From a virus (lineage: Duplodnaviria; Heunggongvirae; Uroviricota; Caudoviricetes): a stretch of 11,855 bases of DNA. Numbering within the stretch: position 1 is the first letter of the stretch; every line of letters starts with the position of its first letter. The position numbers were made by a program, and so were the translations under genes. The DNA lies in IMG/VR virus record IMGVR_UViG_2541047119_000012, positions 1 to 11,855 of that record; one strand, written 5' to 3'. Below the pieces are notes generated by a model. That model was not told the origin of the DNA. It was given only the letters and a program-made list of their open reading frames with translations, and searched no databases. Positions 1 to 11,855 of this stretch are shown here, in pieces.

Positions 1-1
1 C

Positions 2-319
2 CATCACAGTGATAAAGGTTCTCAGTATGTATCACTGGCCTATACGGAGCGACTAAAAGAAGCCGGATTACTGGCATCAACAGGGAGTACAGGCGACTCG
101 TATGACAACGCGATGGCTGAGAGCATCAATGGTCTTTACAAAGCGGAGGTAATACACCGTAAGAGCTGGAAAAACCGTGCAGAAGTGGAACTGGCCACAC
201 TAACGTGGGTGGACTGGTATAACAATCGACGATTGCTGGGAAGGCTGGGCCATACTCCTCCGGCAGAAGCAGAAAAAGCTTATTATGCTTCCATCGGAAA
301 CGATGATCTGGCAGCCTGA
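2..319 (+). mobile_element. IS3-family-like transposase (rve/DDE integrase fold), C-terminal part; 5' end lies outside the window
   Basis: Frame open from position 2 to the stop at 317-319. Translation ...HSDKGSQYVSLAYTERLKEAGLLASTGSTGDSYDNAMAESINGLYKAEVIH...LTWVDWYNNRRLLGRLGHTPPAEAEKAYY shows the DDE-transposase C-terminal signature. The right end of the IS is not resolvable by eye; a GC hairpin at about 349-371 may lie in the terminal region. Confidence 0.75.
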
Positions 320-720
320 GTTCACAGATAAAACACTCTCCAGGAAACCCGGGGCGGTTCAGCCGCCCGGATGGATTGGGTTATGAGCCCGTCGTCCGGT
401 GATGCTCTTCTCTGTTTTGTAAAAAGGACGGTACCAGCCGGAAGCAAGGGTACAAGCTGGTACCGCTAAGACTACACACAGCATAAAGTTGTGGTGCCGG
501 GTGCCTCCCGGTGCCTGGCGAAGGTTGCACACCAGGCGGGTGGGTATCCACAGAAGGTCGACTGTCAGCCTCAACCTTAACCCGCGTGCGCTGAGCCGCA
601 TTCACCACAACGCTAAGGATTCTCTCTGGTTGAAAATACTTAGCTGTTATGTGCCTGTCTTTTCACCACTTCAGGCTCGGTGGTATCCTTTTAAGCCCGT
701 ATACATAAAAGGAAAATCAA

Positions 721-966
721 ATGACTTTTGATGAAAAAGAACTTGATAATGCAATTAATAAAATCATCGTAACGTCGCTCTTTTCCTGTCTCAGCGACAC
801 TCAGCAAAAACAGTTCTACGAATCGGCTTTCAACATGATCGAGCGTTGTTGTTTCTGCGATGCCGACGAGTTACCTGAAAAAATCAGGAAACAGTTGGCT
901 GATGCTCTTCGAGTGCGACTTTCTGACCAATTTTCTGAAATGTACTCTCCGAATTTGGACAAATAG
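721..966 (+). CDS. hypothetical small protein (81 aa)
   Basis: ATG preceded by AAAAGGAAAA Shine-Dalgarno-like sequence at about 8 nt. No recognisable motif. Overlaps the 3' end of the convergent ORF 884..1180. Confidence 0.35.
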   Translation: MTFDEKELDNAINKIIVTSLFSCLSDTQQKQFYESAFNMIERCCFCDADELPEKIRKQLADALRVRLSDQFSEMYSPNLDK

Positions 967-1180
967 AAAAAGGCCATTTCCATTCAGGGTCTGATGGAAA
1001 GACTTCAGCCTGTTCTAAAGCACGGCGTAAAGAGAACACAACTCCAGCCATAATCTGATGTTTCCCATTGGTCCAGCTATCGCCGCTCTGATCTACAGGG
1101 GCGGCTATGTCGTATGACCAAACGACTTCACAGTTATTGTTTAAAATCTGGACTTTCATTTCATACACCTGCTTTAACAT
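884..1180 (-). CDS. hypothetical small protein (98 aa, or 91 aa from the second Met)
   Basis: Leftward ORF downstream of the OL-like operators, the position of the first leftward gene (N) in lambda. An AGGTG sits about 7 nt before the second in-frame ATG. Not arginine-rich and no motif recognised. Confidence 0.3.
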   Translation of the reverse strand: MLKQVYEMKVQILNNNCEVVWSYDIAAPVDQSGDSWTNGKHQIMAGVVFSLRRALEQAEVFPSDPEWKWPFSICPNSESTFQKIGQKVALEEHQPTVS

Positions 1181-1366
1181 GAGTGCCTAGTGGCACAACA
1201 TGACTCAACGAATCATCCTGGACTTCATATGCCCCAGGCGGCTACTTCGTGGGCGTCCTGCCTGTTCGTTTTTGACATTTACTGACTGCTTACGACACAT
1301 GCACCGTGTTGCAACCAGATTTTGTTGTAATCCTGTAGTTGGTCTGGAATAAAAGATAAAATTAAA

Positions 1367-1403
1367 TTGCGAGATATGCAAGTGGTATTTGCGAGATATG
1401 CAA
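1367..1403. promoter_or_regulatory. OL-like operator pair: two identical 15-bp sites TTGCGAGATATGCAA (1367-1381, 1389-1403)
   Basis: Exact direct repeat with TTGC-N7-GCAA symmetry, the same pattern as the site TTGCGTGATAAGCAA in the cI-cro intergenic region. On the minus strand a TTGCAT -35-like hexamer overlaps the sites. Confidence 0.45.
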
Positions 1404-1415
1404 ATTTATAGGTAA

Positions 1416-1437
1416 TAAAAAGCCACCTTTCGGTGGC
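1416..1437 (-). terminator. intrinsic terminator downstream of the repressor gene (minus strand)
   Basis: GCCACC-TTTC-GGTGGC hairpin (1422-1437). On the minus strand it is followed by a T-run (plus-strand AAAAA at 1417-1421), about 20 nt past the cI stop. Confidence 0.6.
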
Positions 1438-1457
1438 CGATGGATGGGATATTGAGG

Positions 1458-2150
1458 TTAATTATGTCTCTTAAGGGTTTGCGACTGACTGATTAAGACC
1501 TTTCCAAAGACCATGAATCGGTGTTCGTTTTCGCTAGTAATTCCCCATTCACGGTAAATCTGGTTATCAGAAATCACCAGCAGTTTGTCAGGAATCATTT
1601 GAAGTCTTTTAACGTATATTTTGTCATCAAAACCAAAGACATATATACCATCACCATCAAACTGATTGATGCTGACATCAACGAAGATGAGATCTCCTGG
1701 CTCAATGGTTGGACACATACTGTCCCCACGAACGTTGATAACTTTGATGTGATTGGCTGGTCGTCCGCCGAACATTGATACAGCATTATCAGTTCTGTAT
1801 TCGATGGCATGAATCACATCAATGACATCACCGCCCTGGATAAGGCCATTTCCCGCACTGGCACTGATATCCAGCATTTCAATACGGAACACATCCTTCA
1901 CCTGCGCAACATCCTCATTATTACTGTTTTTATATACAGTATTACTTTTGTGGGCAGAGGTAAAGAGATCAGCAATATCAACACCTAAGCTCTTGGCAAT
2001 ATTACTCAGTGTTTGTTCGGTAAATTGTTTTTGCTTACCCGTTTCTAAGCGCGAGATGTTCGCCGCATCTACTCCTATCGCTTCAGCGAGATCGGCGATT
2101 TTCATGTTCTTCGCTTGGCGAAGTTGTCTGACTCGGTTTCCTATGTTCAT
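1458..2150 (-). CDS. cI: CI-type prophage repressor: N-terminal XRE-family HTH, C-terminal S24 (LexA-like) self-cleaving peptidase domain
   Basis: N-terminus MNIGNRVRQLRQAKNMKIADLAEAIGVDAANISRLETG is an HTH_XRE. C-terminus has GDSMCPTIEPGDLIFVD (catalytic Ser) and a downstream VKRL Lys, the S24 Ser-Lys dyad; Ala-Gly in ...SASAGNG... is a candidate cleavage site. Divergent from the cro-like gene. No SD before the ATG, so the mRNA is probably leaderless. Confidence 0.9.
   Translation of the reverse strand: MNIGNRVRQLRQAKNMKIADLAEAIGVDAANISRLETGKQKQFTEQTLSNIAKSLGVDIADLFTSAHKSNTVYKNSNNEDVAQVKDVFRIEMLDISASAGNGLIQGGDVIDVIHAIEYRTDNAVSMFGGRPANHIKVINVRGDSMCPTIEPGDLIFVDVSINQFDGDGIYVFGFDDKIYVKRLQMIPDKLLVISDNQIYREWGITSENEHRFMVFGKVLISQSQTLKRHN
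1922..1941. promoter_or_regulatory. LexA (SOS) box-like palindrome TACTGTTTTTATATACAGTA inside the cI coding sequence
   Basis: CTGT-N8-ACAG with an all-A/T spacer and TA flanks, close to the E. coli LexA box consensus TACTGTATATATATACAGTA. My by-eye scan of CTGT occurrences found no other copy in the window. Confidence 0.45.
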
Positions 2151-2247
2151 GCGTTTATTACATTTCTTTATTGCGTGATAAGCAAATCAACTTGCGCAAA
2201 ATAATTGCGTGAAATAACATGCATAACGCGCAATATTTGGAGGGCGT
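2151..2247. promoter_or_regulatory. OR-like divergent promoter/operator region between cI and cro
   Basis: Operator-like sites TTGCGTGATAAGCAA (2171-2185), palindrome TTGCGCAA (2192-2199), TTGCGTGAAATAACA (2206-2220) and inverted ATTGCGCG (2227-2234). Rightward promoter candidate: -35 TTGCGC (2192-2197), 17-bp spacer, -10 TAACAT (2215-2220), then GGAGGG RBS before the cro ATG. Confidence 0.6.
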
Positions 2248-2508
2248 ATGCAATCACCATTACGAAATGTGCGTAAGGCGCATGGTTTCACTTTGCAGCA
2301 TGTTGCTGCGGGTGTTCAAGTCAATCCAGCGACGTTGAGTCGTATTGAGAGGCTGGAGCAGATTCCATCTATCGAGCTTGCAGAACGTTTAGCCAATTTT
2401 TTTAAGGGTGAAGTCAGCGAAATGCAGATTCTTTATCCGGCACGTTTTCAATCTAGCCAAAACCAGAATGGGTTTAAACCACAGGAACAGGAGGTGAACC
2501 GTGGGTAA
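2248..2508 (+). CDS. cro: Cro-like HTH transcriptional regulator (XRE family)
   Basis: Divergent from cI. GFTLQHVAAGVQVNPATLSRIER is an HTH. GGAGGG RBS. Its stop overlaps the GTG start of the next gene. Confidence 0.7.
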   Translation: MQSPLRNVRKAHGFTLQHVAAGVQVNPATLSRIERLEQIPSIELAERLANFFKGEVSEMQILYPARFQSSQNQNGFKPQEQEVNRG

Positions 2509-3052
2509 GCATCACTGGAAAGTAGAAAAACAGCCTGAGTGGTACGTGAAAGCTGTCAGAAAAACTATCGCAGCGTTGCCGGGGGGGTACGCTGAAGCTG
2601 CTGACTGGCTGGATGTAACAGAGAACGCATTATTTAACCGCCTTCGTGCCGATGGCGATCAGATTTTCCCGCTGGGATGGGCAATGATTTTGCAACGTGC
2701 TGGTGGAACTCACTTCATTGCTGACGCTGTGGCGCAGTCTGCAAATGGCGTCTTTGTGTCTCTTCCTGATGTCGAGGATGTGGACAACGCCGATATCAAC
2801 CAACGCCTGCTGGAGGTCATTGAACAGATCGGCAGTTATTCAAAACAGATTCGTTCAGCAATTGAAGACGGTGTAGTGGAACCGCATGAGAAGACAGCAA
2901 TTAACGACGAGCTGTACCTCTCAATTTCGAAGCTGCAGGAGCATGCAGCACTGGTCTACAAAATTTTTTGCATTTCAGAAAGTAATGACGCCCGCGAGTG
3001 TGCAGCTCCGGGCGCCGTGGCGTGTCGTGACTGTGGAGAAACTAACGCATGA
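2501..3052 (+). CDS. YdaT/CII-like prophage regulatory protein (183 aa)
   Basis: GTG start after GGAGG RBS, translationally coupled to cro. Sits in the cII position of the immunity module. Family assignment is from memory of YdaT/CP76-type proteins, not from a search. Confidence 0.5.
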
Positions 3053-3387
3053 ACAGTTTAACAACACACTACCGTCGCTCGCAACTGATTGCACTTCCTG
3101 TACCGGGTGGAAAAGCGAAGGTGGAGTATTGCTATGCAGTGAATGTACCAGGTGACAGGGAAATTGTAACCCACAGCTTTGCAGAGTGGGCTGTGGGTGA
3201 TTTCAACAGGCAAAAGGAGACAGTCCTTTGCGACAAGTTAACCGCTGGTTCAAAGATCACTACGGAGTGCCCGTCAGAGTCATTCGTTGGGAACCGGAAA
3301 CACAACGGGTTATCTACCTCCGCGAAGGCTATGAGCATGAGTGCTTCAGCCCGCTCGAACAGTTTCGTCGTAAATTCAGGGAAATAG
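3049..3387 (+). CDS. hypothetical protein; the ORF as drawn is probably chimeric (5' part plausible, 3' part doubtful)
   Basis: ATG overlaps the upstream stop (ATGA) with GGAG about 7 nt upstream, so the start is credible. The 3' half is Ser-rich and low-complexity with rarer codons, while another frame looks coding (see 3228..3407). Confidence 0.3.
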
Positions 3388-3407
3388 AGGTCGGTCATGA
3401 GCACTAA
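3228..3407 (+). CDS. candidate small protein (59 aa) with TTG start, not in the ORF track
   Basis: AAAGGAGA at 3212-3219, 8 nt before TTG at 3228. Translation [59 protein letters not shown] is protein-like. Stop overlaps the start of the replication gene. May instead be the 3' part of a frameshifted gene begun at 3049. Confidence 0.3.
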
Positions 3408-4338
3408 ATTAACCGGCTATGTATGGGATGGTTGCGCTGCGTCAGGCATGAAGTTATCCAGCGTGGCAATTATGGCCCGCCTGGCTGATTTCAGTAATGA
3501 CGAAGGTGTGTGCTGGCCATCAATTGAAACCATTGCCCGCCAGATTGGCGCGGGGATGAGCACCGTCAGAACGGCTATCGCACGGCTGGAAGCAGAAGGC
3601 TGGTTAACGCGTAAGGCGCGTCGCCAGGGTAACCGCAATGCGTCGAATGTTTATCAGCTTAACGTTGCGAAGCTTCAGGCAGCGGCATTTTCTCAACTGT
3701 CAGATTCTGACCCGTCAAAATCTGACGCATCAAAATCTGACCCGTCAAAATTTGATGCGTCGAAATCTGGCAAAAAAGCGGGTTTTCACCCGTCAGAATC
3801 TGGCGGGGATCCGTCAGTAAAATCAAAACATGATCCGTCAGATAAAAAACCTTCTCGTCCGGACGCTTCGCAACCGGACACGCAGACGGATGAACAGGAT
3901 TTTTTAACTCGCCATCCTGATGCGGTTGTATTCAGCCCTAAAAAGCGCCAGTGGGGGACGCAGGATGATTTGACCTGTGCACAGTGGCTCTGGAAAAAAA
4001 TCATCGCCCTGTACGAGCATGCCGCCGAATGTGACGGCGAGGTGGTTCGTCCCAAAGAACCGAACTGGACAGCCTGGGCAAACGAAATTCGCCTGATGTG
4101 TGTGCAGGATGGTCGTACTCATAAACAAATCTGCGAGATGTACAGCCGCGTCAGTCGCGATCCGTTCTGGTGCCGTAACGTGCTCAGCCCGTCGAAGCTG
4201 CGGGAAAAATGGGATGAGCTTTCCCTGCGCTTATCGCCGTCCGTCAGCACGTACACCGAAAAACGCGAGGACCCGTACTTCAAAGCCAGTTACGACAACG
4301 TGGACTACAGCCAGATCCCGGCAGGATTCAGGGGGTGA
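3397..4338 (+). CDS. lambda O-like replication initiator (N-terminal winged-HTH) with an internal iteron array
   Basis: N-terminus ...VAIMARLADFSNDEGVCWPSIETIARQIGAGMSTVRTAIARLEAEGWL is a wHTH. The repeat region encodes SDPSKSDASKSDPSKFDASKS. Position follows the immunity module as O does in lambda. Confidence 0.55.
   Translation: MSTKLTGYVWDGCAASGMKLSSVAIMARLADFSNDEGVCWPSIETIARQIGAGMSTVRTAIARLEAEGWLTRKARRQGNRNASNVYQLNVAKLQAAAFSQLSDSDPSKSDASKSDPSKFDASKSGKKAGFHPSESGGDPSVKSKHDPSDKKPSRPDASQPDTQTDEQDFLTRHPDAVVFSPKKRQWGTQDDLTCAQWLWKKIIALYEHAAECDGEVVRPKEPNWTAWANEIRLMCVQDGRTHKQICEMYSRVSRDPFWCRNVLSPSKLREKWDELSLRLSPSVSTYTEKREDPYFKASYDNVDYSQIPAGFRG
3706..3845. repeat. iteron array (putative replication origin): four tandem 15-bp units (3706-3765) plus degenerate copies to about 3845, followed by an A-rich stretch
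   Basis: TCTGACCCGTCAAAA / TCTGACGCATCAAAA / TCTGACCCGTCAAAA / TTTGATGCGTCGAAA at exact 15-bp phase; 3724-3734 and 3751-3761 are reverse complements. Further CCGTCAGA-like copies at 3789, 3810, 3834, then AAAATCAAAACA...GATAAAAAACC. Confidence 0.6.
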
Positions 4339-4340
4339 GC

Positions 4341-4829
4341 ATGAGTCTTTTGAATGACGTTCAGAAATTCATTGAAGCCCATCCGGGCTGTACTTCCGGA
4401 GACATTGCGGATGCTTTTGCAGGTTACTCACGGCAGCGCGTTCTGCAGTCTGCAAGCAAGTTACGTCAGAGTGGGCGTGTGGCTCACCGTTGTGAAGGGG
4501 ATACACGCAGACATTTCCCGCGCCTGACTGAGAGAGCGCAGGAGCCGGAACCACAACCAGTTCGTGAAACCAGACCTGTGCGCAATTTCTATGTCGGCAC
4601 TAACGATCCCCGGGTGATTTTGTGCCTGACCCGCCAGGCTGAAGAACTGGAGTCCAGGGGCTTATACCGTCGTGCTGCAACGGTGTGGATGGCGGCATTC
4701 CGTGAAAGCCACTCCCAGCCAGAACGAAACAATTTTCTGGCGCGTCGTGAGCGGTGCTTACGGAAAAGCAGCAAGCGCGCTGTATCGGGTGAAGAGTGGT
4801 ATCTGTCAGGGAATTACGTGGGGGCTTAA
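4341..4829 (+). CDS. PerC-family-like transcriptional regulator (about 162 aa)
   Basis: ATG at 4341 after GGGGG RBS (an in-frame GTG at 4335 is also possible). Motif ...ELESRGLYRRAATVWMAAF... resembles the PerC/Pch signature as I recall it. Stop overlaps the next start (TAATG). Confidence 0.45.
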   Translation: MSLLNDVQKFIEAHPGCTSGDIADAFAGYSRQRVLQSASKLRQSGRVAHRCEGDTRRHFPRLTERAQEPEPQPVRETRPVRNFYVGTNDPRVILCLTRQAEELESRGLYRRAATVWMAAFRESHSQPERNNFLARRERCLRKSSKRAVSGEEWYLSGNYVGA

Positions 4830-5482
4830 TGAGTAATAAATATTGCCAGGCGCTGGTGGAGCTGCGGAACAAACCAGCCCATGAACTGAAGGAAGTGGGC
4901 GATCAGTGGCGCACGCCGGACAACATTTTCTGGGGAATTAACACCCTGTTTGGCCCGTTTGTTCTGGATCTGTTCACTGACGGTGATAACGCCAAATGTG
5001 CCGCTTATTACACTGCGGAAGACAACGCGCTGGCGCATGACTGGTCAGAACGTCTTGCGGAGCTTAAAGGTGCTGCCTTTGGTAATCCCCCATACAGCCG
5101 CGCCAGTCAGCATGAGGGGCAATACATCACCGGCATGCGTTACATCATGAAGCATGCCAGTGCCATGCGTGATAAAGGCGGGCGCTATGTTTTCCTGATC
5201 AAAGCTGCCACCAGCGAAGTGTGGTGGCCGGAAGATGCAGATCATATTGCTTTTATTCGCGGGCGTATTGGTTTTGAACTGCCTGCCTGGTTTATCCCGA
5301 AGGATGAGAAGCAGGTGCCGACAGGCGCTTTCTTCGCTGGTGCTATTGCTGTTTTCGACAAGACCTGGAAGGGACCGGCAATCAGCTACATCGGGCGCTA
5401 TGAACTTGAGGCATGTGGTGAGGCCTTTCTGGCGCAGGTTCGCCAGCAGGCAGAAAAACTGGTCAGGGAGATGGCGGCATGA
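4829..5482 (+). CDS. phage Dam-type DNA N6-adenine methyltransferase
   Basis: N-terminal WRTPDNIF motif and catalytic NPPY (...AAFGNPPYSRA...). ATG overlaps the upstream stop; the GTG at 4796 in the ORF track is less likely. Confidence 0.85.
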   Translation: MSNKYCQALVELRNKPAHELKEVGDQWRTPDNIFWGINTLFGPFVLDLFTDGDNAKCAAYYTAEDNALAHDWSERLAELKGAAFGNPPYSRASQHEGQYITGMRYIMKHASAMRDKGGRYVFLIKAATSEVWWPEDADHIAFIRGRIGFELPAWFIPKDEKQVPTGAFFAGAIAVFDKTWKGPAISYIGRYELEACGEAFLAQVRQQAEKLVREMAA

Positions 5483-5805
5483 CGACGTTAACTCAATGCC
5501 AGCAGCAGGTGCTGGATATGCTGATTTCTTATCAGAAAGAACGTGGCTTCCCGCCAACCAATCAGGAGGTGGCAACCATGCTGGGATACCGTTCAGTGAA
5601 TGCAGCGGTGGAGCATCTTCGCGCACTGGAGAAAAAAGGCGTCATCACGATAAAGCGTGGCGTGGCCCGGGGGATAACGCTTCATATCGCGGTGAAGGAC
5701 GACGACAGCGAGGCGGTCGGGATTATCCGCGCACTGCTTGCCGGTGAGGAAAACGCAAGGCTGCGTGCAACCCACTGGTTACATGAGAGGGACCTGAAAG
5801 TATGA
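5479..5805 (+). CDS. LexA N-terminal DNA-binding-domain protein with no S24 peptidase domain (108 aa)
   Basis: LTQCQQQVLDMLISYQKERGFPPTNQEVATMLGYRSVNAAVEHLRALEKKGVITIKRGVARGITL aligns by eye along its length with the E. coli LexA N-terminus (…LTARQQEVFDLI…[44 protein letters not shown]…). No Ala-Gly cleavage or Ser-Lys peptidase region follows. GGGAG RBS; ATGA overlap with the methyltransferase stop. Confidence 0.8.
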   Translation: MTTLTQCQQQVLDMLISYQKERGFPPTNQEVATMLGYRSVNAAVEHLRALEKKGVITIKRGVARGITLHIAVKDDDSEAVGIIRALLAGEENARLRATHWLHERDLKV

Positions 5806-6191
5806 AGCTGATCCTGCCTTTTCCGCCCAGCGTGAACACGTACTGGCGACACCCCAACAAAGGGGCGTTTGCTGGTAAGAGCCTGATAAGCGCGGCGGGG
5901 CGAAAATTCCAGAGCGCGGCGTGCGCAGCAATAGTTGAGCAGTTACGTCGTCTGCCGAAACCAACGTCGGCACCTGCTTCAGTGGAGATCGTGTTGTTTC
6001 CTCCGGATAACCGGATCCGCGATCTGGACAACTATAACAAGGCGCTGTTTGACGCCCTGACCCACGCGGGTGTGTGGGAAGACGACAGTCAGGTGAAAAG
6101 AATGCTGGTGGAGTGGGGACCGGTTATCCCGGAAGGGAAGGTCGAGATCACTATCAGTAAGTACGAGAAAACGGCGGGTGCAGCCGCCTGA
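5802..6191 (+). CDS. rusA: RusA Holliday-junction resolvase
   Basis: PFPPSVNTYWRH...DLDNYNKALFDALTHAGVWEDDSQV matches the RusA family conserved blocks. Start overlaps the upstream stop. Confidence 0.9.
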   Translation: MKLILPFPPSVNTYWRHPNKGAFAGKSLISAAGRKFQSAACAAIVEQLRRLPKPTSAPASVEIVLFPPDNRIRDLDNYNKALFDALTHAGVWEDDSQVKRMLVEWGPVIPEGKVEITISKYEKTAGAAA

Positions 6192-6210
6192 TTAAGAGGA
6201 GAAACGAAGT

Positions 6211-7020
6211 ATGAATAATCTGATGGTCATTGATGGTATTGAAGTTCGTCGTGATGCTTATGGGCGTTACAGCCTGAACGATCTGCATCGCGCAGCAGTA
6301 GCATCTGGTGCAAATGCCAGAACCAAGGAGCCGGGAAAGTTTCTTTCCAGCCAACAAACTGTTGAGCTTGTTCATGAATTGACCAACACCCAGAATTTGG
6401 GTGTTGACCCGGTGAGTGTGATTCATGGGGGAAATGAACGGGGAACGTATGTCTGCAAGGAACTGGTGTATGCCTATGCAATGTGGATCAGCCCGTCATT
6501 CCATCTGAAGGTGATCCGTACTTTCGATATGGTAACCAGCGCACCGGAAAAATTATCCGGACAGGCTGCTGACAAGATGCAGGCTGGCGTGATCCTGCTG
6601 GACTTTATGCGCCGGGAGTTAAACCTGTCTAACTCTTCAGTGCTTGGTGCCTGTCAGAAACTCCAGGAGGCTGTTGGCTTACCGAATCTGGCACCGCGCT
6701 ATGCCATTGATGCTCCTGCTGACGCGCCTGATGGCTCAAGCCGCCCCACGCTATCATTGAGTGCACTGCTGAAGCAGTATGGTATCCGCCTGACAGCTAA
6801 TCAGGCATATCACCAGATGGCGAAGCTGGGGATCGTTGAACAACGTGAACGATACAGCCGCACTGCGATTAACAACATCAAAAAATTCTGGTCGCTGACA
6901 GCGAAAGGCTGCATGTTCGGCAAGAACATCACCAGTCCCGCAAATCCGCGCGAGACGCAGCCGCATTTCTTCGAATCCCGATTCCCTGAGCTGTTAAAGC
7001 TGCTCGATACCGTTCATTGA
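6211..7020 (+). CDS. KilA-N domain protein with a C-terminal antirepressor-like region
   Basis: N-terminus ...DGIEVRRDAYGRYSLNDLHRAAVASG...GTYVCKELVYAYAMWISPSFHLKVI is a KilA-N domain. Strong RBS AAGAGGAGAAA. Confidence 0.75.
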   Translation: MNNLMVIDGIEVRRDAYGRYSLNDLHRAAVASGANARTKEPGKFLSSQQTVELVHELTNTQNLGVDPVSVIHGGNERGTYVCKELVYAYAMWISPSFHLKVIRTFDMVTSAPEKLSGQAADKMQAGVILLDFMRRELNLSNSSVLGACQKLQEAVGLPNLAPRYAIDAPADAPDGSSRPTLSLSALLKQYGIRLTANQAYHQMAKLGIVEQRERYSRTAINNIKKFWSLTAKGCMFGKNITSPANPRETQPHFFESRFPELLKLLDTVH

Positions 7021-7021
7021 G

Positions 7022-8017
7022 GTGACCGTGAGAGCACTACTGACTCCTGAAATTGCCCCGCGTATGGGGATCGTATTGTTCAGGCCAGGTTCAGAGCTGA
7101 TGCCCCTGTTTATGCAGGGGCGTGTCCTGCTGGAGCCTGAGCCGGAACGTTATTCATCTTTCGCCAGTGGTGCCGTTCCGGCGGCATCACAACCGCTGGC
7201 GGATGATCCTGCCGTTCGGGCCGTGTTCCGCAATGAGGCAGTGATCCGTCGTGCTGGTGGCGTGGAATGTCTTGAAAGCTGGTTACTTCGTGAAAAAGGC
7301 TGCCAGTGGCCTCATTCCGACTGGCACAGCGAGAACATGACCACAATGCGACACGCTCCGGGCGCAATCCGTCTGTGCTGGCACTGCGATAACCAGCTGC
7401 GCGATCAGTTCACGGAACGGCTGGAATCAATGGCAACGGATAACTGTGCCCGCTGGGTGTTGTCTGTTGTGCGTCGGGATCTCGGTTTTGATGACAGTCA
7501 CGTTGTGACAATGCCGGAACTGTGCTGGTGGCTGATTCGTAATGACCTGGCGGATGCCTTACCGGAAAGTGCAGCCCGTAAGGCACTTAGATTACCGAAG
7601 CCTGTTGTGCCGTCTGTTACCCGGGAAAGTGACCTTGTGCCTTCGGTTCCTGCCACCAGCATCATCCAGGATAAAGCGAAAAAGGTGCTGGCGCTGAAAG
7701 TGGATCCTGAGTCGCCGGAGTCTTTTATGTTACGCCCAAAACGTCGCCGCTGGGTTAATGAAAAGTACACGCGCTGGGTTAAGACACAGCCGTGTGCATG
7801 TTGTGGAAAGCCTGCTGATGATCCCCACCACCTGATAGGTCACGGTCAGGGAGGAATGGGTACAAAAGCGCATGACCTCTTTGTGTTGCCTTTGTGCAGA
7901 AAGCATCACGACGAGCTGCATGCGGATACCGTGGCATTTGAAGAGAAGTATGGCTCCCAGCTGGAGCTGATATTTCGTTTTATCGATCGTGCGCTGGCAA
8001 TAGGCGTACTGGCGTAA
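7022..8017 (+). CDS. DUF968-like prophage protein with a C-terminal Cys/His zinc-binding (HNH-like) motif
   Basis: C-terminus ...PCACCGKPADDPHHLIGHGQGGMGTKAHDLFVLPLCRKHHDELH. Nin-region position between rusA and Q. Start is uncertain (GTG 7022 or a downstream start). Confidence 0.5.
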   Translation: MTVRALLTPEIAPRMGIVLFRPGSELMPLFMQGRVLLEPEPERYSSFASGAVPAASQPLADDPAVRAVFRNEAVIRRAGGVECLESWLLREKGCQWPHSDWHSENMTTMRHAPGAIRLCWHCDNQLRDQFTERLESMATDNCARWVLSVVRRDLGFDDSHVVTMPELCWWLIRNDLADALPESAARKALRLPKPVVPSVTRESDLVPSVPATSIIQDKAKKVLALKVDPESPESFMLRPKRRRWVNEKYTRWVKTQPCACCGKPADDPHHLIGHGQGGMGTKAHDLFVLPLCRKHHDELHADTVAFEEKYGSQLELIFRFIDRALAIGVLA

Positions 8018-8030
8018 GTGGAGAACGAGC

Positions 8031-8783
8031 ATGAACTTTGAAGCCTTACCGAAATATTACTCCCCAAAATCTCCAAAATTGAGCGATGACGCACCGGCGA
8101 CAGGCTCTGGTGGTTTAACAATTACGGATGTAATGGCTGCGCAGGGGATGGTGCAGTCGAAAGCACCGCTTGGGTTTGCCTTATTCCTGGCAAAAGTTGG
8201 TGTTCAGGATCCTCAGTTTGCGATTGAAGGTCTGCTCAATTACGCGATGGCACTGGATAACCCGACATTGAACAAATTGAGTGAAGAAACCCGGCTACAG
8301 ATCATTCCTTACCTTGTGAATTTTGCCTTTGCTGATTATTCCAGGTCTGCGGCAAGTAAGGCTCGCTGTGAGCATTGTGCTGGTACTGGATTTCATGATG
8401 TATTGCGCGAGGTGGTGAAACACTCCAGAAGCGGGGAATCTGTTATCAAGGAAGAGTGGGTGAAGGAACTGTGTCAGCATTGTCATGGTAAGGGAGAAGT
8501 CAGCACAGCGTGCAGAGGGTGTAAGGGTAAAGGTATTGTCCTGGATGAAAAAAGAACCAGGCTTCATGGCACGCCTGTTTATAAGGTTTGTGGGCGTTGC
8601 AATGGAAACCGGTTTAGCCGTTTACCAACCACACTGGCGCGGCTTCATGTCCAGAAGCTGGTACCAGACCTGACGGATTATCAGTGGTACAAAGGATATG
8701 CAGATGTCATTGATAAACTGGTTACAAAGTGCTGGCAGGAAGAAGCGTATGCTGAGACACAATTGAGGAAAGTGACGAGATGA
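8031..8783 (+). CDS. Q: late-gene antitermination protein Q (phage 82 / QuuQ type, 250 aa)
   Basis: Four CxxCxGxG-type zinc-finger repeats (CEHCAGTG, CQHCHGKG, CRGCKGKG, CGRCNGN). Sits immediately upstream of a promoter plus short-transcript terminator. GGAG RBS. Confidence 0.8.
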   Translation: MNFEALPKYYSPKSPKLSDDAPATGSGGLTITDVMAAQGMVQSKAPLGFALFLAKVGVQDPQFAIEGLLNYAMALDNPTLNKLSEETRLQIIPYLVNFAFADYSRSAASKARCEHCAGTGFHDVLREVVKHSRSGESVIKEEWVKELCQHCHGKGEVSTACRGCKGKGIVLDEKRTRLHGTPVYKVCGRCNGNRFSRLPTTLARLHVQKLVPDLTDYQWYKGYADVIDKLVTKCWQEEAYAETQLRKVTR

Positions 8784-8814
8784 ATGATTTTCGACGAAAA
8801 TGGCGACATGATGC

Positions 8815-8843
8815 TTGCATTTTTCAAAAAAAATGGATAATAT
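8815..8843 (+). promoter_or_regulatory. PR'-like late promoter (-35 TTGCAT, 17-bp spacer, -10 TAATAT); a qut site is expected to overlap
   Basis: Hexamers at 8815-8820 and 8838-8843, directly downstream of Q and about 50 nt upstream of an intrinsic terminator. Confidence 0.5.
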
Positions 8844-8890
8844 TTTCTCAATGATAGGCATTGTGTGTCCGGCTTTAATAAAAAGTAGAA

Positions 8891-8917
8891 AACCCGCTGA
8901 TGTGCGGGTTTTTTTTC
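8891..8917 (+). terminator. tR'-like intrinsic terminator
   Basis: AACCCGC-TGATGT-GCGGGTT hairpin followed by TTTTTTTT. Confidence 0.7.
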
Positions 8918-8937
8918 GGAATTTTAGATGTGTGGCA

Positions 8938-8967
8938 TTGAAATGGTATTCGGCGAGTAGGTAGAAT
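8938..8967 (+). promoter_or_regulatory. sigma70-like promoter upstream of the cargo genes (-35 TTGAAA, 18-bp spacer, -10 TAGAAT)
   Basis: Hexamers at 8938-8943 and 8962-8967, about 27 nt upstream of the 8995 ATG. Confidence 0.4.
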
Positions 8968-8994
8968 TTAAACTTTCGTCTCGTCTGGATCGAC

Positions 8995-9537
8995 ATGATG
9001 TTTCAAGCCTTCCAAACAGCAGTATTTAAAAATGTTGCAGAGTATTTAAAAGGGCGCTTCCCTCATAAGTCGTTAGGGCTCGTATATGCCGACGAGCTGG
9101 TACTAAAAGATATGGAGTTCCTCAAGGCTAACAATAAACTGCGGTGGGATCCCGGACTAAAGTCGCGAGTGTTTATGGATATGATGGAAGAACACCCGAT
9201 AAAACTAGTTGTTTATTATCGTGGGGAGCCTATTGGATTTGCATTTGGGTGTTACTGTAAGCCGAAAAATGCGGTGCATATTTGCTGGATGGAAAAACGT
9301 AATGATGCACATGAAGACCTAGACCATCAGATGCTTGGTATCGTTTTGGATTGCTTCTCTGCATATGCACGATTTCTGAACCTTCAGGGTGAATCTATTG
9401 ATTCGATAGCTTTAGTTAGTCCAGTTGATGGGGCAATAAGATACTATACTGAAAGTGGTTTTGAGTACATTGCTGATTACGAACGAGGTGGTTGCGCAAT
9501 GGTGCTTAGGAGCGTTTTACCTAACCAATCAGTGTGA
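8995..9537 (+). CDS. uncharacterised cargo protein (180 aa), possibly GNAT-fold acyltransferase-like
   Basis: Lies in the AT-rich segment. C-terminal ...SIALVSPVDGAIRYYTESGFEYIADYERGGCAMVL resembles the GNAT beta5-alpha4-beta6 region, but the canonical Q/RxxGxG/A acetyl-CoA motif is not evident. Weak SD. Confidence 0.55.
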   Translation: MMFQAFQTAVFKNVAEYLKGRFPHKSLGLVYADELVLKDMEFLKANNKLRWDPGLKSRVFMDMMEEHPIKLVVYYRGEPIGFAFGCYCKPKNAVHICWMEKRNDAHEDLDHQMLGIVLDCFSAYARFLNLQGESIDSIALVSPVDGAIRYYTESGFEYIADYERGGCAMVLRSVLPNQSV

Positions 9538-9728
9538 GTTAGATTCTTAATTTCTCCAGAATCATTACAAAAGTATTGAAAACCTCTTTTAGTTGATGCA
9601 ATCTGGATCCACACAAAGCACACACAAAATGTACTACGCTTTACTTTATACATCTTCAGGTAACAAACTTTGTTGCCTTTATGCTTCAAAGAAGCAACTA
9701 CAGCTTAGTGCTGAACAAGGGGATTTTT

Positions 9729-9914
9729 ATGAAACATCATGAGCAGATAGAGATTGAGGCAGCTAAAGTCGTCGCCGAACTCTTTGCTGGCAATGCATCT
9801 CCAATGGAAACCTTTGGTATTACATGGAGTCAAACTCAGATGTTAGAGCGTAAGAATCCTGGTGTAGTGATCAAACTAGTACCGGATGACGGTAAAAAAC
9901 TTGCGTATTGCTGA
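9729..9914 (+). CDS. uncharacterised small cargo protein (61 aa)
   Basis: ATG at 9729 with AAGGGG 6 nt upstream (the track's upstream ATG at 9681 lacks an RBS). Followed by an intrinsic terminator. No motif recognised. Confidence 0.5.
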   Translation: MKHHEQIEIEAAKVVAELFAGNASPMETFGITWSQTQMLERKNPGVVIKLVPDDGKKLAYC

Positions 9915-9973
9915 TAATTTTTAAAGATTTTTTCAGCTAGAGAATCGATTATTTTACTATAAATCGCGAAGGA

Positions 9974-9998
9974 GCCCCACATATTGTGGGGCTTTTTG
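9974..9998 (+). terminator. intrinsic terminator closing the cargo unit
   Basis: GCCCCACA-TAT-TGTGGGGC hairpin (8-bp stem) followed by TTTTTG. Confidence 0.7.
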
Positions 9999-10171
9999 TT
10001 TCATCTTAGTTAGCCGTTATTCACATTCACTACTTTGCTACTTATCCACTGTAAAAATAAATTGTGAATTATTTTGTGGCTTATTGTTAGTGTTCTATCA
10101 ATTTTGTGTGTGATATTCCATTGGCGTGGTTATTATCTGTGCATCGCACTTAAATGTATAAAGCTCACTAG

Positions 10172-10486
10172 TTGAGACAATCCTACCACCAGTTGGTGGT
10201 ATCTCATGATTCACTGAATTGCAAATCTTCTGAATTGCTGGATGAGTTTAAATCTCACCGGCGCTATTTCTCCGTATCAGTCTCCGTGCCTTATACCGAT
10301 GTCAGGACGCATAAGCCCGTTCAGTTCTACCCGGGTAAACATCCGTGCGAGAAACCGGCGGATATGCTCAGGCAAATAATCAATGCCAGTAGTCGACCTG
10401 GTGATCTGGTTGCTGATTTCTTTATGGGATTCGGTTCCACAATAAAAGCAGCAATGGCGCTGGGGCGTCGGGCGTTAGGTGTTTAA
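10172..10486 (+). pseudogene. remnant of a beta-class N6/N4 DNA methyltransferase (C-terminal motif region only)
   Basis: ...HPCEKPADMLRQIINASSRPGDLVADFFMGFGSTIKAAMALGRRALGV corresponds to the conserved ...HPTQKP...GD.VLDPF.GSGTT..AA..LGR..IGIE block with degenerate residues. No DPPY-encoding N-terminal part upstream, which is AT-rich non-coding. TTG start only. Confidence 0.55.
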
Positions 10487-10553
10487 CTTGAGTCAGAGCG
10501 GTTTAATCAGACGGTGAAAGAGGTAAGTGAACTGGTGGGGAAATAATTCTGGT

Positions 10554-10579
10554 GGCCACGTTGCGTGGCCTTTTTATTT
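10554..10579 (+). terminator. intrinsic terminator immediately upstream of the holin gene
   Basis: GGCCACG-TTG-CGTGGCC hairpin (10554-10570) followed by TTTTTATTT. Confidence 0.6.
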
Positions 10580-10622
10580 CCAACACAGCACCCGCAAATA
10601 TCGCGAGGTGAGAGATGACGAA

Positions 10623-10958
10623 ATGCCTCATAACCCAAATACCTGGCCGGACTGGCTGGAGTTGTTTCAGAGCTGGTGGCGTGGAGACACACCGCTGGGT
10701 GCAGTGATTATGTCGATCGTTATGGCTGGTTTGCGCATCGCCTATTTTGGCGGTGGTGGTGGCTGGAAGCGAAAAACGCTCGAGATTTTGCTATGTGGCG
10801 CTCTGACGCTGACCTTTGCATCCGCTCTTGAGTATGTCGGATGGCCTAAATCACTTTCTGTTGCCATTGGTGGTGGGGTGGGGCTGATCGGTGTCGATGC
10901 TATTCGTGGGGCTGCAATGCGAGTAATCGGTAACAAATTTGGTGGCTCTAAGGAGTAA
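10623..10958 (+). CDS. holin (lambda-S-like architecture, about 111 aa)
   Basis: Three hydrophobic segments (AVIMSIVMAGLRIAYFGG; TLEILLCGALTLTFASALEYV; LSVAIGGGVGLIGVDAIRGAAM) and a charged C-terminus, directly upstream of the endolysin. GAGGTGA about 11 nt before ATG 10623. The track's 10527 GTG start would place a terminator hairpin inside the coding sequence. Confidence 0.7.
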   Translation: MPHNPNTWPDWLELFQSWWRGDTPLGAVIMSIVMAGLRIAYFGGGGGWKRKTLEILLCGALTLTFASALEYVGWPKSLSVAIGGGVGLIGVDAIRGAAMRVIGNKFGGSKE

Positions 10959-10961
10959 TTT

Positions 10962-11438
10962 ATGCAGGTACTAAATTCCCAGCGTAAAGCTTTCCTTGAT
11001 ATGGTGGCTTGGTCAGAAGGAACGGATAACGGACGACAACCGACACGTAACCACGGTTATGACGTTATTGTCGGTGGTGAACTCTTCACTGATTACTCCG
11101 ATCACCCTCGCAAACTTGTCACGCTAAACCCCAAACTCAAATCAACAGCCGCCGGACGTTACCAGCTTCTTTCACGTTGGTGGGATGCTTACCGTAAACA
11201 GCTTGGTTTGAAAGACTTCTCCCCCAAAAGCCAGGACGCTGTGGCATTGCAGCAGATTAAAGAACGTGGCGCTTTACCGATGATTGATCGTGGTGATATT
11301 CGTCAGGCTATCGACCGTTGCAGCAATATCTGGGCTTCGTTGCCGGGCGCTGGTTACGGTCAGTTCGAGCATAAGGCTGACAGCCTGATTGCAAAATTCA
11401 AAGAAGCAGGCGGAACGGTCAGAGAGATTGAGGTATGA
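10962..11438 (+). CDS. R: endolysin, lambda R-type lytic transglycosylase
   Basis: ...[57 protein letters not shown]...[91 protein letters not shown]... is almost identical to phage lambda R as I recall it. AAGGAG RBS. Confidence 0.95.
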
Positions 11439-11855
11439 GCAGAGTAACCGCGATTATTTCCGCTCTGGTTATCTGCATCATCGTCTGCCTGTCATGGGCT
11501 GTTAATCATTACCGTGATAACGCCATTACCTACAAAGCCCAGCGCGACAAAAATGCCAGAGAACTGAAGCTGGCGAACTCGACAATTACTGACATGCAGA
11601 TGCGTCAGCGTGATGTTGCTGCGCTCGATGCAAAATACACGAAGGAGTTAGCTGATGCGAAAGCTGAAAATGATGCTCTGCGTGATGATGTTGCCGCTGG
11701 TCGTCGTCGGTTGCACATCAAAGCAGTCTGTCAGTCAGTGCGTGAAGCCACCACCGCCTCCGGCGTGGATAATGCAGCCTCCCCCCGACTGGCAGACACC
11801 GCTGAACGGGATTATTTCACCCTCAGAGAGAGGCTGATCACTATGCAAAAACAAC
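11435..11855 (+). CDS. Rz: Rz i-spanin (inner-membrane spanin); 3' end beyond the window
   Basis: [48 protein letters not shown]... matches lambda Rz. ATG overlaps the R stop. Confidence 0.9.
11655..11837 (+). CDS. Rz1: Rz1 o-spanin lipoprotein, embedded in the +1 frame of Rz
   Basis: [24 protein letters not shown]... has a lipobox (VVGC) and the proline-rich [17 protein letters not shown], lying wholly inside Rz in another frame as in lambda. Confidence 0.9.

Follow-up and report, generated by a model that had tools for sequence, protein, structure and literature searches.

Organization of the locus

The locus described here lies in 11,855 nucleotides of DNA from a tailed phage of the class Caudoviricetes (positions 1 to 11,855 of IMG/VR record IMGVR_UViG_2541047119_000012; below, the window). 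Between the gene ymfL and the gene of an O-like replication initiator, two open reading frames (ORFs) are superimposed on the same strand. The longer one, ymfM (gene A), has its ATG at 3049, which shares bases with the TGA stop codon of ymfL (3050–3052) as ATGA. The shorter one (gene B) encodes a protein of the DUF4222 family and is read in the −1 frame relative to ymfM, with 160 of its 180 nt (3228–3387) inside the ymfM ORF. Gene B ends 8 nt past the ATG (3397) of the O-like gene; this ATG lies within the last DUF4222 codons, and the O-like gene shares its reading frame with ymfM. The ymfM TAG is the sole stop between this frame and the O-like gene 9 nt downstream; ATA, TTA, or GTA is used at this site in other lineages. 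An earlier examination of the DNA by a model, without database searches (the sequence-only reading), had pointed to the ATG ORF with its GGAG ribosome-binding site and ATGA overlap, as well as to the TTG at 3228 with a well-spaced ribosome-binding site and a 59-aa product overlapping the start of the replication gene. All these features were found again at the same positions (Table 1).

Table 1. Features of the ymfM/DUF4222 locus and its surroundings; coordinates are those of the window.
Feature	Position	Strand	Remarks
ymfM ORF (gene A), 112 aa	3049..3387	+	phrog_1170; equivalent of K-12 b1148
ymfM Shine-Dalgarno GGAG	3035..3038	+	10 nt before ATG; GGAG(A) context kept in all homologous loci
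ymfM N-terminal module, ~59 aa	3049..3225	+	motif NHSFxEWAVGDF; part under protein-level selection in frame A
ymfM tail	3229..3387	+	52 sense codons and stop; +1 frame of DUF4222; Ser/Thr/Ala-rich
ymfM stop TAG	3385..3387	+	formed by rare Ile codon ATA (codon 53 of gene B) followed by GAG
DUF4222 gene (gene B), 59 aa, TTG start	3228..3407	+	Pfam PF13973; WP_001250269.1 in the O157 annotation
DUF4222 Shine-Dalgarno AAGGAG	3214..3219	+	8 nt before TTG 3228
CI-like S24 repressor	1458..2150	-	upstream part of the local gene order
Cro-like gene	2248..2508		before ymfL
ymfL, CII-like regulator	2501..3052	+	Pfam Phage_CP76, 51 bits; NCBIfam YmfL, 168 bits; annotated as ymfL
O-like replication initiator (HTH_36)	3397..4338	+	from Pfam, annotation, and distances
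CxxC...CxxC peptide frame	3054..3155	+	not a gene; no start codon after the upstream stop
Antisense ORF, 90 aa, phrog_13771	3132..3404	-	not a gene; called in some phage records

Gene B matched the Pfam DUF4222 model (PF13973) with 67.3 bits (cutoff 27) and an E-value of 8.6e-19, residues 2–53 being aligned to positions 3–52 of the 53-position model. The TTG-start ORF is thus a genuine gene, in agreement with the two-gene option of the sequence-only reading. Homologs of gene B formed 139 clusters and were named DUF4222 by every source that gave a name. The AlphaFold2 model of the protein (predicted local distance difference test, pLDDT, 84) is a small five-stranded beta-barrel with a helix. 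In all two-frame loci compared, the DUF4222 gene has a start codon of its own (ATG, GTG, or TTG) at the same position, and GGAG is present 5–8 nt upstream of the ATG or GTG in the homologs from Klebsiella and from loci L036 and L039.

Homologs of gene A are mostly 112–117 aa long. Its N-terminal module matched no family in the Pfam and NCBIfam scans, and a PDB sequence search with both proteins gave no meaningful match. The family phrog_20047, with a length of 63 aa, covers only residues 1–63 of YmfM. The mean pLDDT of the AlphaFold2 model of gene A was 48 (50–66 in the N-terminal module and 30–40 in the tail), too low to justify a fold search; the tail is predicted to be disordered. The sequence-only reading characterized the 3′ half of this ORF as Ser-rich with rare codons. 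The first part holds, as 11 of the 53 tail residues are Ser, and the second does not: according to a strict list of rare codons, there is one in the tail vs. seven in the DUF4222 frame.

Selection on the two reading frames

In the N-terminal module, comparison of the Escherichia coli sequence with that of a Klebsiella phage gave a nonsynonymous rate (dN) of 0.33 and a synonymous rate (dS) of 1.4 in frame A. From 3228 onward, the substitutions between the same sequences were distributed over the codon positions of gene B as 4:1:27, with a dN of 0.04 and a saturated proportion of synonymous differences (pS) of 0.85. The ymfM tail retains only 43–51% identity where gene B retains 78–92%. The few differences between O157 and K-12 follow the same pattern: all four in 3049–3227 are synonymous in the ATG frame, and the three in 3228–3387 are all silent when read in the TTG frame and all change the residue in the ATG frame.

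These substitution patterns show that purifying selection acts on frame A up to about 3228 and on frame B thereafter. The sequence-only reading had named conservation of the 3049 frame from end to end, with none of the 3228 frame, as the outcome that would speak against a gene at 3228; the reverse was found, with the 3228 frame strongly conserved and the 3′ half of the 3049 frame not conserved as a protein. The locus thus has the properties of a nested overlapping pair, in which the inner frame is recognized by its dN and pS and the outer frame by the avoidance of stop-making codons (see below) without conservation of amino acids.

Separate occurrence of the two modules

The first 59 residues of YmfM and the DUF4222 ORF were used separately as tblastn queries, and further loci were added by a genome scan and contig look-ups; about 35 related loci were obtained in total. 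Stand-alone forms of gene A were detected in several genera. In Providencia phage PSTRCR_117lys, gene A is annotated (63 aa) and directly followed by the O gene, and Hafnia phage yong2 carries a form of 59 aa. In Citrobacter phiNP-type prophages, a 65-aa form is followed by rha, and DUF4222 lies about 700 nt further. The N-terminal module shares 36–62% identity with these 59–65-aa genes of Providencia, Hafnia, and Citrobacter phiNP-type phages, 32–35% with the 60-aa gene of Xenorhabdus, and 41–44% with the 63-aa gene of Morganella, the stop codon of which overlaps the DUF4222 ATG as ATGA. Conversely, DUF4222 without gene A is found in many phages, upstream of replication, rha, or antirepressor genes.

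The two-frame layout is kept in E. coli/Shigella, Klebsiella, Raoultella, Citrobacter portucalensis, Pantoea/Mixta, metagenomic relatives, and several phages. The junction of the two genes reads ATGC, GTGC, or TTGC in these lineages and ATGG in mEp390. Without a TGA at the junction, gene A continues for 51–57 codons in the +1 frame of gene B and reaches 108–117 aa. Two mosaic proteins (P0077 and P0089) combine an N-terminal module of one type with a tail of another type. Because the modules occur apart and the mosaic proteins are joined at the A/B boundary, this boundary can be regarded, from the comparison of loci, as a recombination joint.

An even longer open frame was noticed in relatives L033 (ST64B, positions 1412–1600), L032 (phage 2H10), and L034 (Stx2a phage), with identical coordinates in all three. 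In these, DUF4222 is followed by the IsrK small RNA (55–64 bits), then by the C4 antisense RNA (80–83 bits) and a Rha/antirepressor gene, which is a module similar to immI of P1. The +1 frame of DUF4222 runs on without a stop for about 130 further codons, through the two RNA genes and into the antirepressor ORF, and in ST64B it is annotated as a single 385-aa protein, sb41, from the MNSLT start. It is unlikely that a frame of this length over the IsrK and C4 RNA genes is open by chance.

Absence of stop codons in the ymfM tail

That the 112-codon ymfM ORF is kept free of stops across the nested gene was not part of the sequence-only reading. In all 22 loci where the ORF starting with MNSLT reads into gene B, the tail frame is open over the shared stretch. 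When gene B was recoded with random synonymous codons according to E. coli codon usage, the +1 frame was open with a probability of only 0.02–0.14 per lineage. The 22 loci represent at least 10 lineages with saturated synonymous divergence and include gene B types with about 45% identity to that of E. coli. Since synonymous sites are saturated between the main lineages, the trials of stop avoidance are largely independent.

The avoidance is seen directly at Val, Leu, and Ile codons whose next base is A or G, where certain synonymous choices create a stop in the +1 frame. In the read-through loci, no such choice was found in 84 at-risk contexts (0/23 distinct states after de-duplication), and in safe contexts of the same genes, 34 of 80 codons ended with a purine, with CTG, GTG, GTA, and ATA used freely. 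Loci in which gene A stops before gene B served as a control and contained stop-making codons in 25 of 61 at-risk contexts, with two to six stops in the +1 frame of gene B in the phiNP type and Morganella. Other genes of the window gave 66/213 and 3.9 stops per 100 codons in the +1 frame, and the DUF4222 domain of the regulator RgdR has four +1-frame stops. Fisher tests on de-duplicated data yielded p = 3e-4, 2e-3, and 4e-4. No stops arose in the tail frame despite the synonymous drift of gene B, and therefore we conclude from the compared sequences that selection probably maintains the translation of ymfM through the nested gene and leaves the sequence of the tail free.

Junction with the replication gene and alternative explanations

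In 30 of 30 loci, the stop codon of gene A is located from −20 to +9 nt relative to the start of the next long gene (O-like, rha, or DUF4222), whether gene A is short or long. This geometry suggests that gene A is translationally coupled to the next cistron. The ancestral junction of the two genes was probably an ATGA stop/start overlap following a 63-aa gene A, as it still is in Morganella prophages. Where the second codon of gene B began with C or G (NTGC or NTGG), the stop of gene A would have been lost, and gene A would have read across gene B. The tail may then have been kept open so as to bring ymfM-translating ribosomes to a halt where the following cistron, the replication gene, begins, by which tight coupling is preserved. 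In other words, if DUF4222 separates gene A from the replication gene and there is no ATGA junction, gene A would serve to bridge it.

The explanation that we prefer is that ymfM and the DUF4222 gene are two independently initiated genes of the early-right operon, overlapping out of frame, and that the tail of ymfM is kept open by selection; given the sequence comparisons above, we assign it a probability of about 0.8. The sequence-only reading had also considered a single gene frameshifted near 3200–3230, which does not agree with the conservation of the two-frame layout across genera and with the start codon that gene B possesses. A programmed −1 frameshift near 3208–3216 (CAA AAG GAG), by which translation from 3049 would produce an A-B fusion, is very improbable. 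It would explain why gene B, when adjacent, is always in the −1 frame relative to gene A, but this relation follows automatically from the ATGA/NTGC overlap. An A AAG motif with the Shine-Dalgarno-like AAGGAG does occur in the O157 sequence; the motif is not kept in K-12 (CGG CAG AAG GAG, where O157 has AGG CAA AAG), Klebsiella, or Pantoea, and no conserved slippery heptamer was found. Gene B has a conserved start codon and usually a Shine-Dalgarno sequence, and the zero frame, which normally terminates soon after a slip site, is open here for 52 codons. There are rare in-frame A::DUF4222 fusions in databases (P0030, P0053, P0060, and P0065), which are near-identical E. coli sequences with deletions, of 1 nt in P0065 and larger in the others. 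They are probably mutations or assembly errors and, if real, represent natural fusion alleles; P0065, found in E. coli assemblies, comprises 14 member sequences. Still harder to accept is a pseudogene formed by a frameshift mutation in one ancestral gene of a decaying prophage, even though e14-like elements are often defective and the conserved frame changes in the middle of the region. The same layout is present in functional induced phages (SfII, SfIV, vB_Eco, and Klebsiella phages) and in different genera that share 75% nucleotide identity, each half is an independent gene elsewhere, and both halves are under purifying selection, each in its own frame. Single-frame proteins turned up only as rare indel variants and not as a natural family.

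With respect to the tail, it is improbable, though less so, that only the short gene A matters and that the tail is a neutral read-through artifact, its openness being due to the composition or ancestry of DUF4222. Such neutrality agrees with the existence of short stand-alone A genes and with a tail that is predicted to be disordered and is unconstrained in sequence while the synonymous sites of gene B are saturated. It does not agree with the expected frequency of stops or with the difference between read-through and control loci at at-risk contexts, given that CTG, GTG, and GTA are common at safe positions. Several observations weigh against selection for an open tail or against the two-gene arrangement as a whole. 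The DUF4222 genes of Yersinia YeP2 and Hafnia yong2 are also free of +1 stops, although gene A does not read into them; their chance probability (about 0.14–0.16) is the highest obtained. The lineages are not wholly independent as gene B modules are exchanged by recombination, and the combined probability is therefore no more than indicative. The Shine-Dalgarno sequence of gene B is weak in the Pantoea loci and weaker or more distant in locus L042. Both products and the tail are known here from the sequence alone. Finally, coupling has an alternative that would fit the data equally: a disordered tail might be needed irrespective of its sequence, for the sake of stability, degradation, or spacing.

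If selection on two independently initiated genes with an open tail is the correct explanation, the locus shows clearly, by comparison, how an ORF extension can stay free of stops while its protein drifts, and may serve as a test case for methods of overlapping-gene detection.

Genomic setting and annotation

The window covers the immunity and replication region (early-right operon) of a lambdoid prophage of the e14 type. A 551-base stretch around the nested genes is 100% identical to E. coli O157:H7 chromosomes, and related sequence is present in 2,648 of 5,426 complete E. coli genomes (about half) as well as in Shigella phages SfII and SfIV and several induced E. coli phages at 95–98% identity. 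The genes of a PerC-like protein, Dam methylase, and others come after the O-like gene. A listed GTG-start ORF (4796..5482) overlaps the PerC-like gene (4335–4829) by 34 nt; the Prokaryotic Genome Annotation Pipeline (PGAP) places the Dam start at the equivalent of 4829, which is an ordinary ambiguity of the start site. No RNA family was matched in an Rfam scan of the window, and nothing within 2100–3600 exceeded the shuffle expectation in a scan for promoters and terminators.

The gene upstream of ymfM, described as ydaT-like in the sequence-only reading, is a YmfL/CII-like gene: no YdaT family appeared in the Pfam scan, in which the only other match was a sub-threshold DUF7577. The last residues of YmfL-like proteins (3020–3052 and homologous loci) contain a conserved Cys pair (CRDCGE, VCMEK, CVEK). 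The corresponding DNA, GTGTGGAGAAA(T/C)..CGC ATG, is kept from E. coli to Xenorhabdus and is also the Shine-Dalgarno region of ymfM.

Two other ORFs that overlap the nested genes were rejected as genes. The CxxC...CxxC frame, taken for a third frame encoding a zinc-ribbon-like peptide, is in fact the frame of the TTG ORF (position mod 3 = 0), with TGA codons at 3153 and 3198 in between; the remark that it lacks a start was correct. It gave no Pfam, PHROG, or NCBIfam match. The Klebsiella homologs lack the cysteines, and those of Pantoea, Morganella, Hafnia, and the phiNP type have stops in the frame. The antisense ORF contains stops in the Eeyore, mEp390, and Klebsiella homologs, and substitutions concentrate at its codon position 1, which corresponds to codon position 3 of gene B.

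The annotations of the locus conflict. In the K-12 MG1655 record, ymfM is listed as "cell division inhibitor YmfM" and the identical DUF4222 ORF (positions 3502–3681 of the K-12 locus, L004) is left unannotated, whereas the PGAP record of O157 lists the DUF4222 gene and lacks ymfM. The suggestion that gene callers had missed a gene therefore holds for the curated K-12 annotation and not for O157. Some phage records call ymfM, and that of Klebsiella phage ST101-KPC2phi6.3 calls the antisense ORF instead. Each of the two annotations examined thus shows one half of a locus found in about half of the complete E. coli genomes. Both gene families already have names; the nesting, the selection for an open outer ORF, and the resulting ambiguity of SfiC (see below) appear to be undescribed. 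The chief relevance of the finding is to annotation and to the literature on SfiC/YmfM.

Relation to known systems

The closest counterpart of the locus is ymfM (b1148) of the e14 prophage in E. coli K-12. YmfM encoded here is identical to that of K-12 in 109 of 112 residues (three differ), with an N-terminal module that is 100% identical. The ORF has the same length and lies between the same neighbors, ymfL upstream and the O-like gene (ymfN) 9 nt downstream, with the same spacing on both sides. By orthology to K-12, the locus probably represents the e14 sfiC determinant, an SOS-inducible inhibitor of cell division. SOS inducibility is expected because the locus sits under the CI-like S24 repressor, and it would be expressed once this repressor is cleaved.

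Z-ring formation is blocked when the 339-bp ymfM ORF is expressed from pBAD24, without any need for SulA, SlmA, or MinC, and a sulA mutant filaments less during the SOS response when ymfM is deleted (Ansari et al., bioRxiv 10.1101/2020.11.19.390815). In that study, ymfM was treated as a simple 112-aa gene, and the internal ORF was not mentioned. Assuming K-12 coordinates, the pBAD24 clone would hold the Shine-Dalgarno sequence, the TTG, and codons 1–53 of gene B, i.e., the whole Pfam domain; library clones from two screens hold all of gene B, and the ymfM deletion should remove most of it. The inhibition is known solely from K-12, with clones of this kind. Either product could therefore be SfiC. 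It is probably the N-terminal module of ymfM; the DUF4222 protein is a weaker candidate, and an activity that needs both is unlikely. We also consider possible, although doubtful, a combination in which the division block is caused by or requires the nested DUF4222 and, independently, the tail is a "ribosome bridge" kept open only to carry ribosomes to the start of the replication gene. If true, the bridge would be a case of selection on the act of translation and not on its product.

RgdR (ECs1581), a 99-aa prophage regulator of E. coli O157:H7 that probably acts as a co-factor, is an activator of LEE1 and the type III secretion system and a repressor of motility (Flockhart et al., 2012, PMC3378721; review PMC10877973). 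This pleiotropic regulator is the only characterized DUF4222 protein. RgdR and the product of gene B share the Pfam domain (82 and 67 bits, respectively) and 41% identity over 49 residues (E-value 3e-11), and both genes lie directly upstream of a replication gene and overlap it: the primase gene ECs_1582 and the O-like gene, correspondingly. In the O157 Sakai prophage Sp7 (L043, 23304–23603), rgdR (ECs_1581) and the beginning of the P4-type primase gene have 4 nt in common, so that unrelated types of prophage share a DUF4222 gene placed directly upstream of a replication gene. RgdR has N- and C-terminal extensions around the domain, whereas the 59-aa protein of gene B consists of the domain only. 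The latter does not belong to the RgdR subfamily, as it has VNR in place of RGD, the motif next to the N-terminal end of the domain from which RgdR takes its name, and lacks the 99-aa architecture with a basic C-terminal extension. Unlike gene B, rgdR does not lie inside a second ORF. Small beta-barrels of the Tudor/SH3/KOW type, such as the C-terminal domain of UvrD/PcrA, the RNA polymerase-interacting domain of CarD/Mfd, and the KOW domain of Spt5, are also among the closest known systems.

In its arrangement, the locus resembles gene pairs of the lambda Rz/Rz1 type, in which a small gene with its own start is embedded out of frame in a longer gene and both frames are kept. Both products of Rz/Rz1 are conserved in sequence and work together, whereas the overlapping part of the outer gene is conserved here only as an open frame. 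The inner gene, unlike that of Rz/Rz1, is a mobile module that is also found alone.

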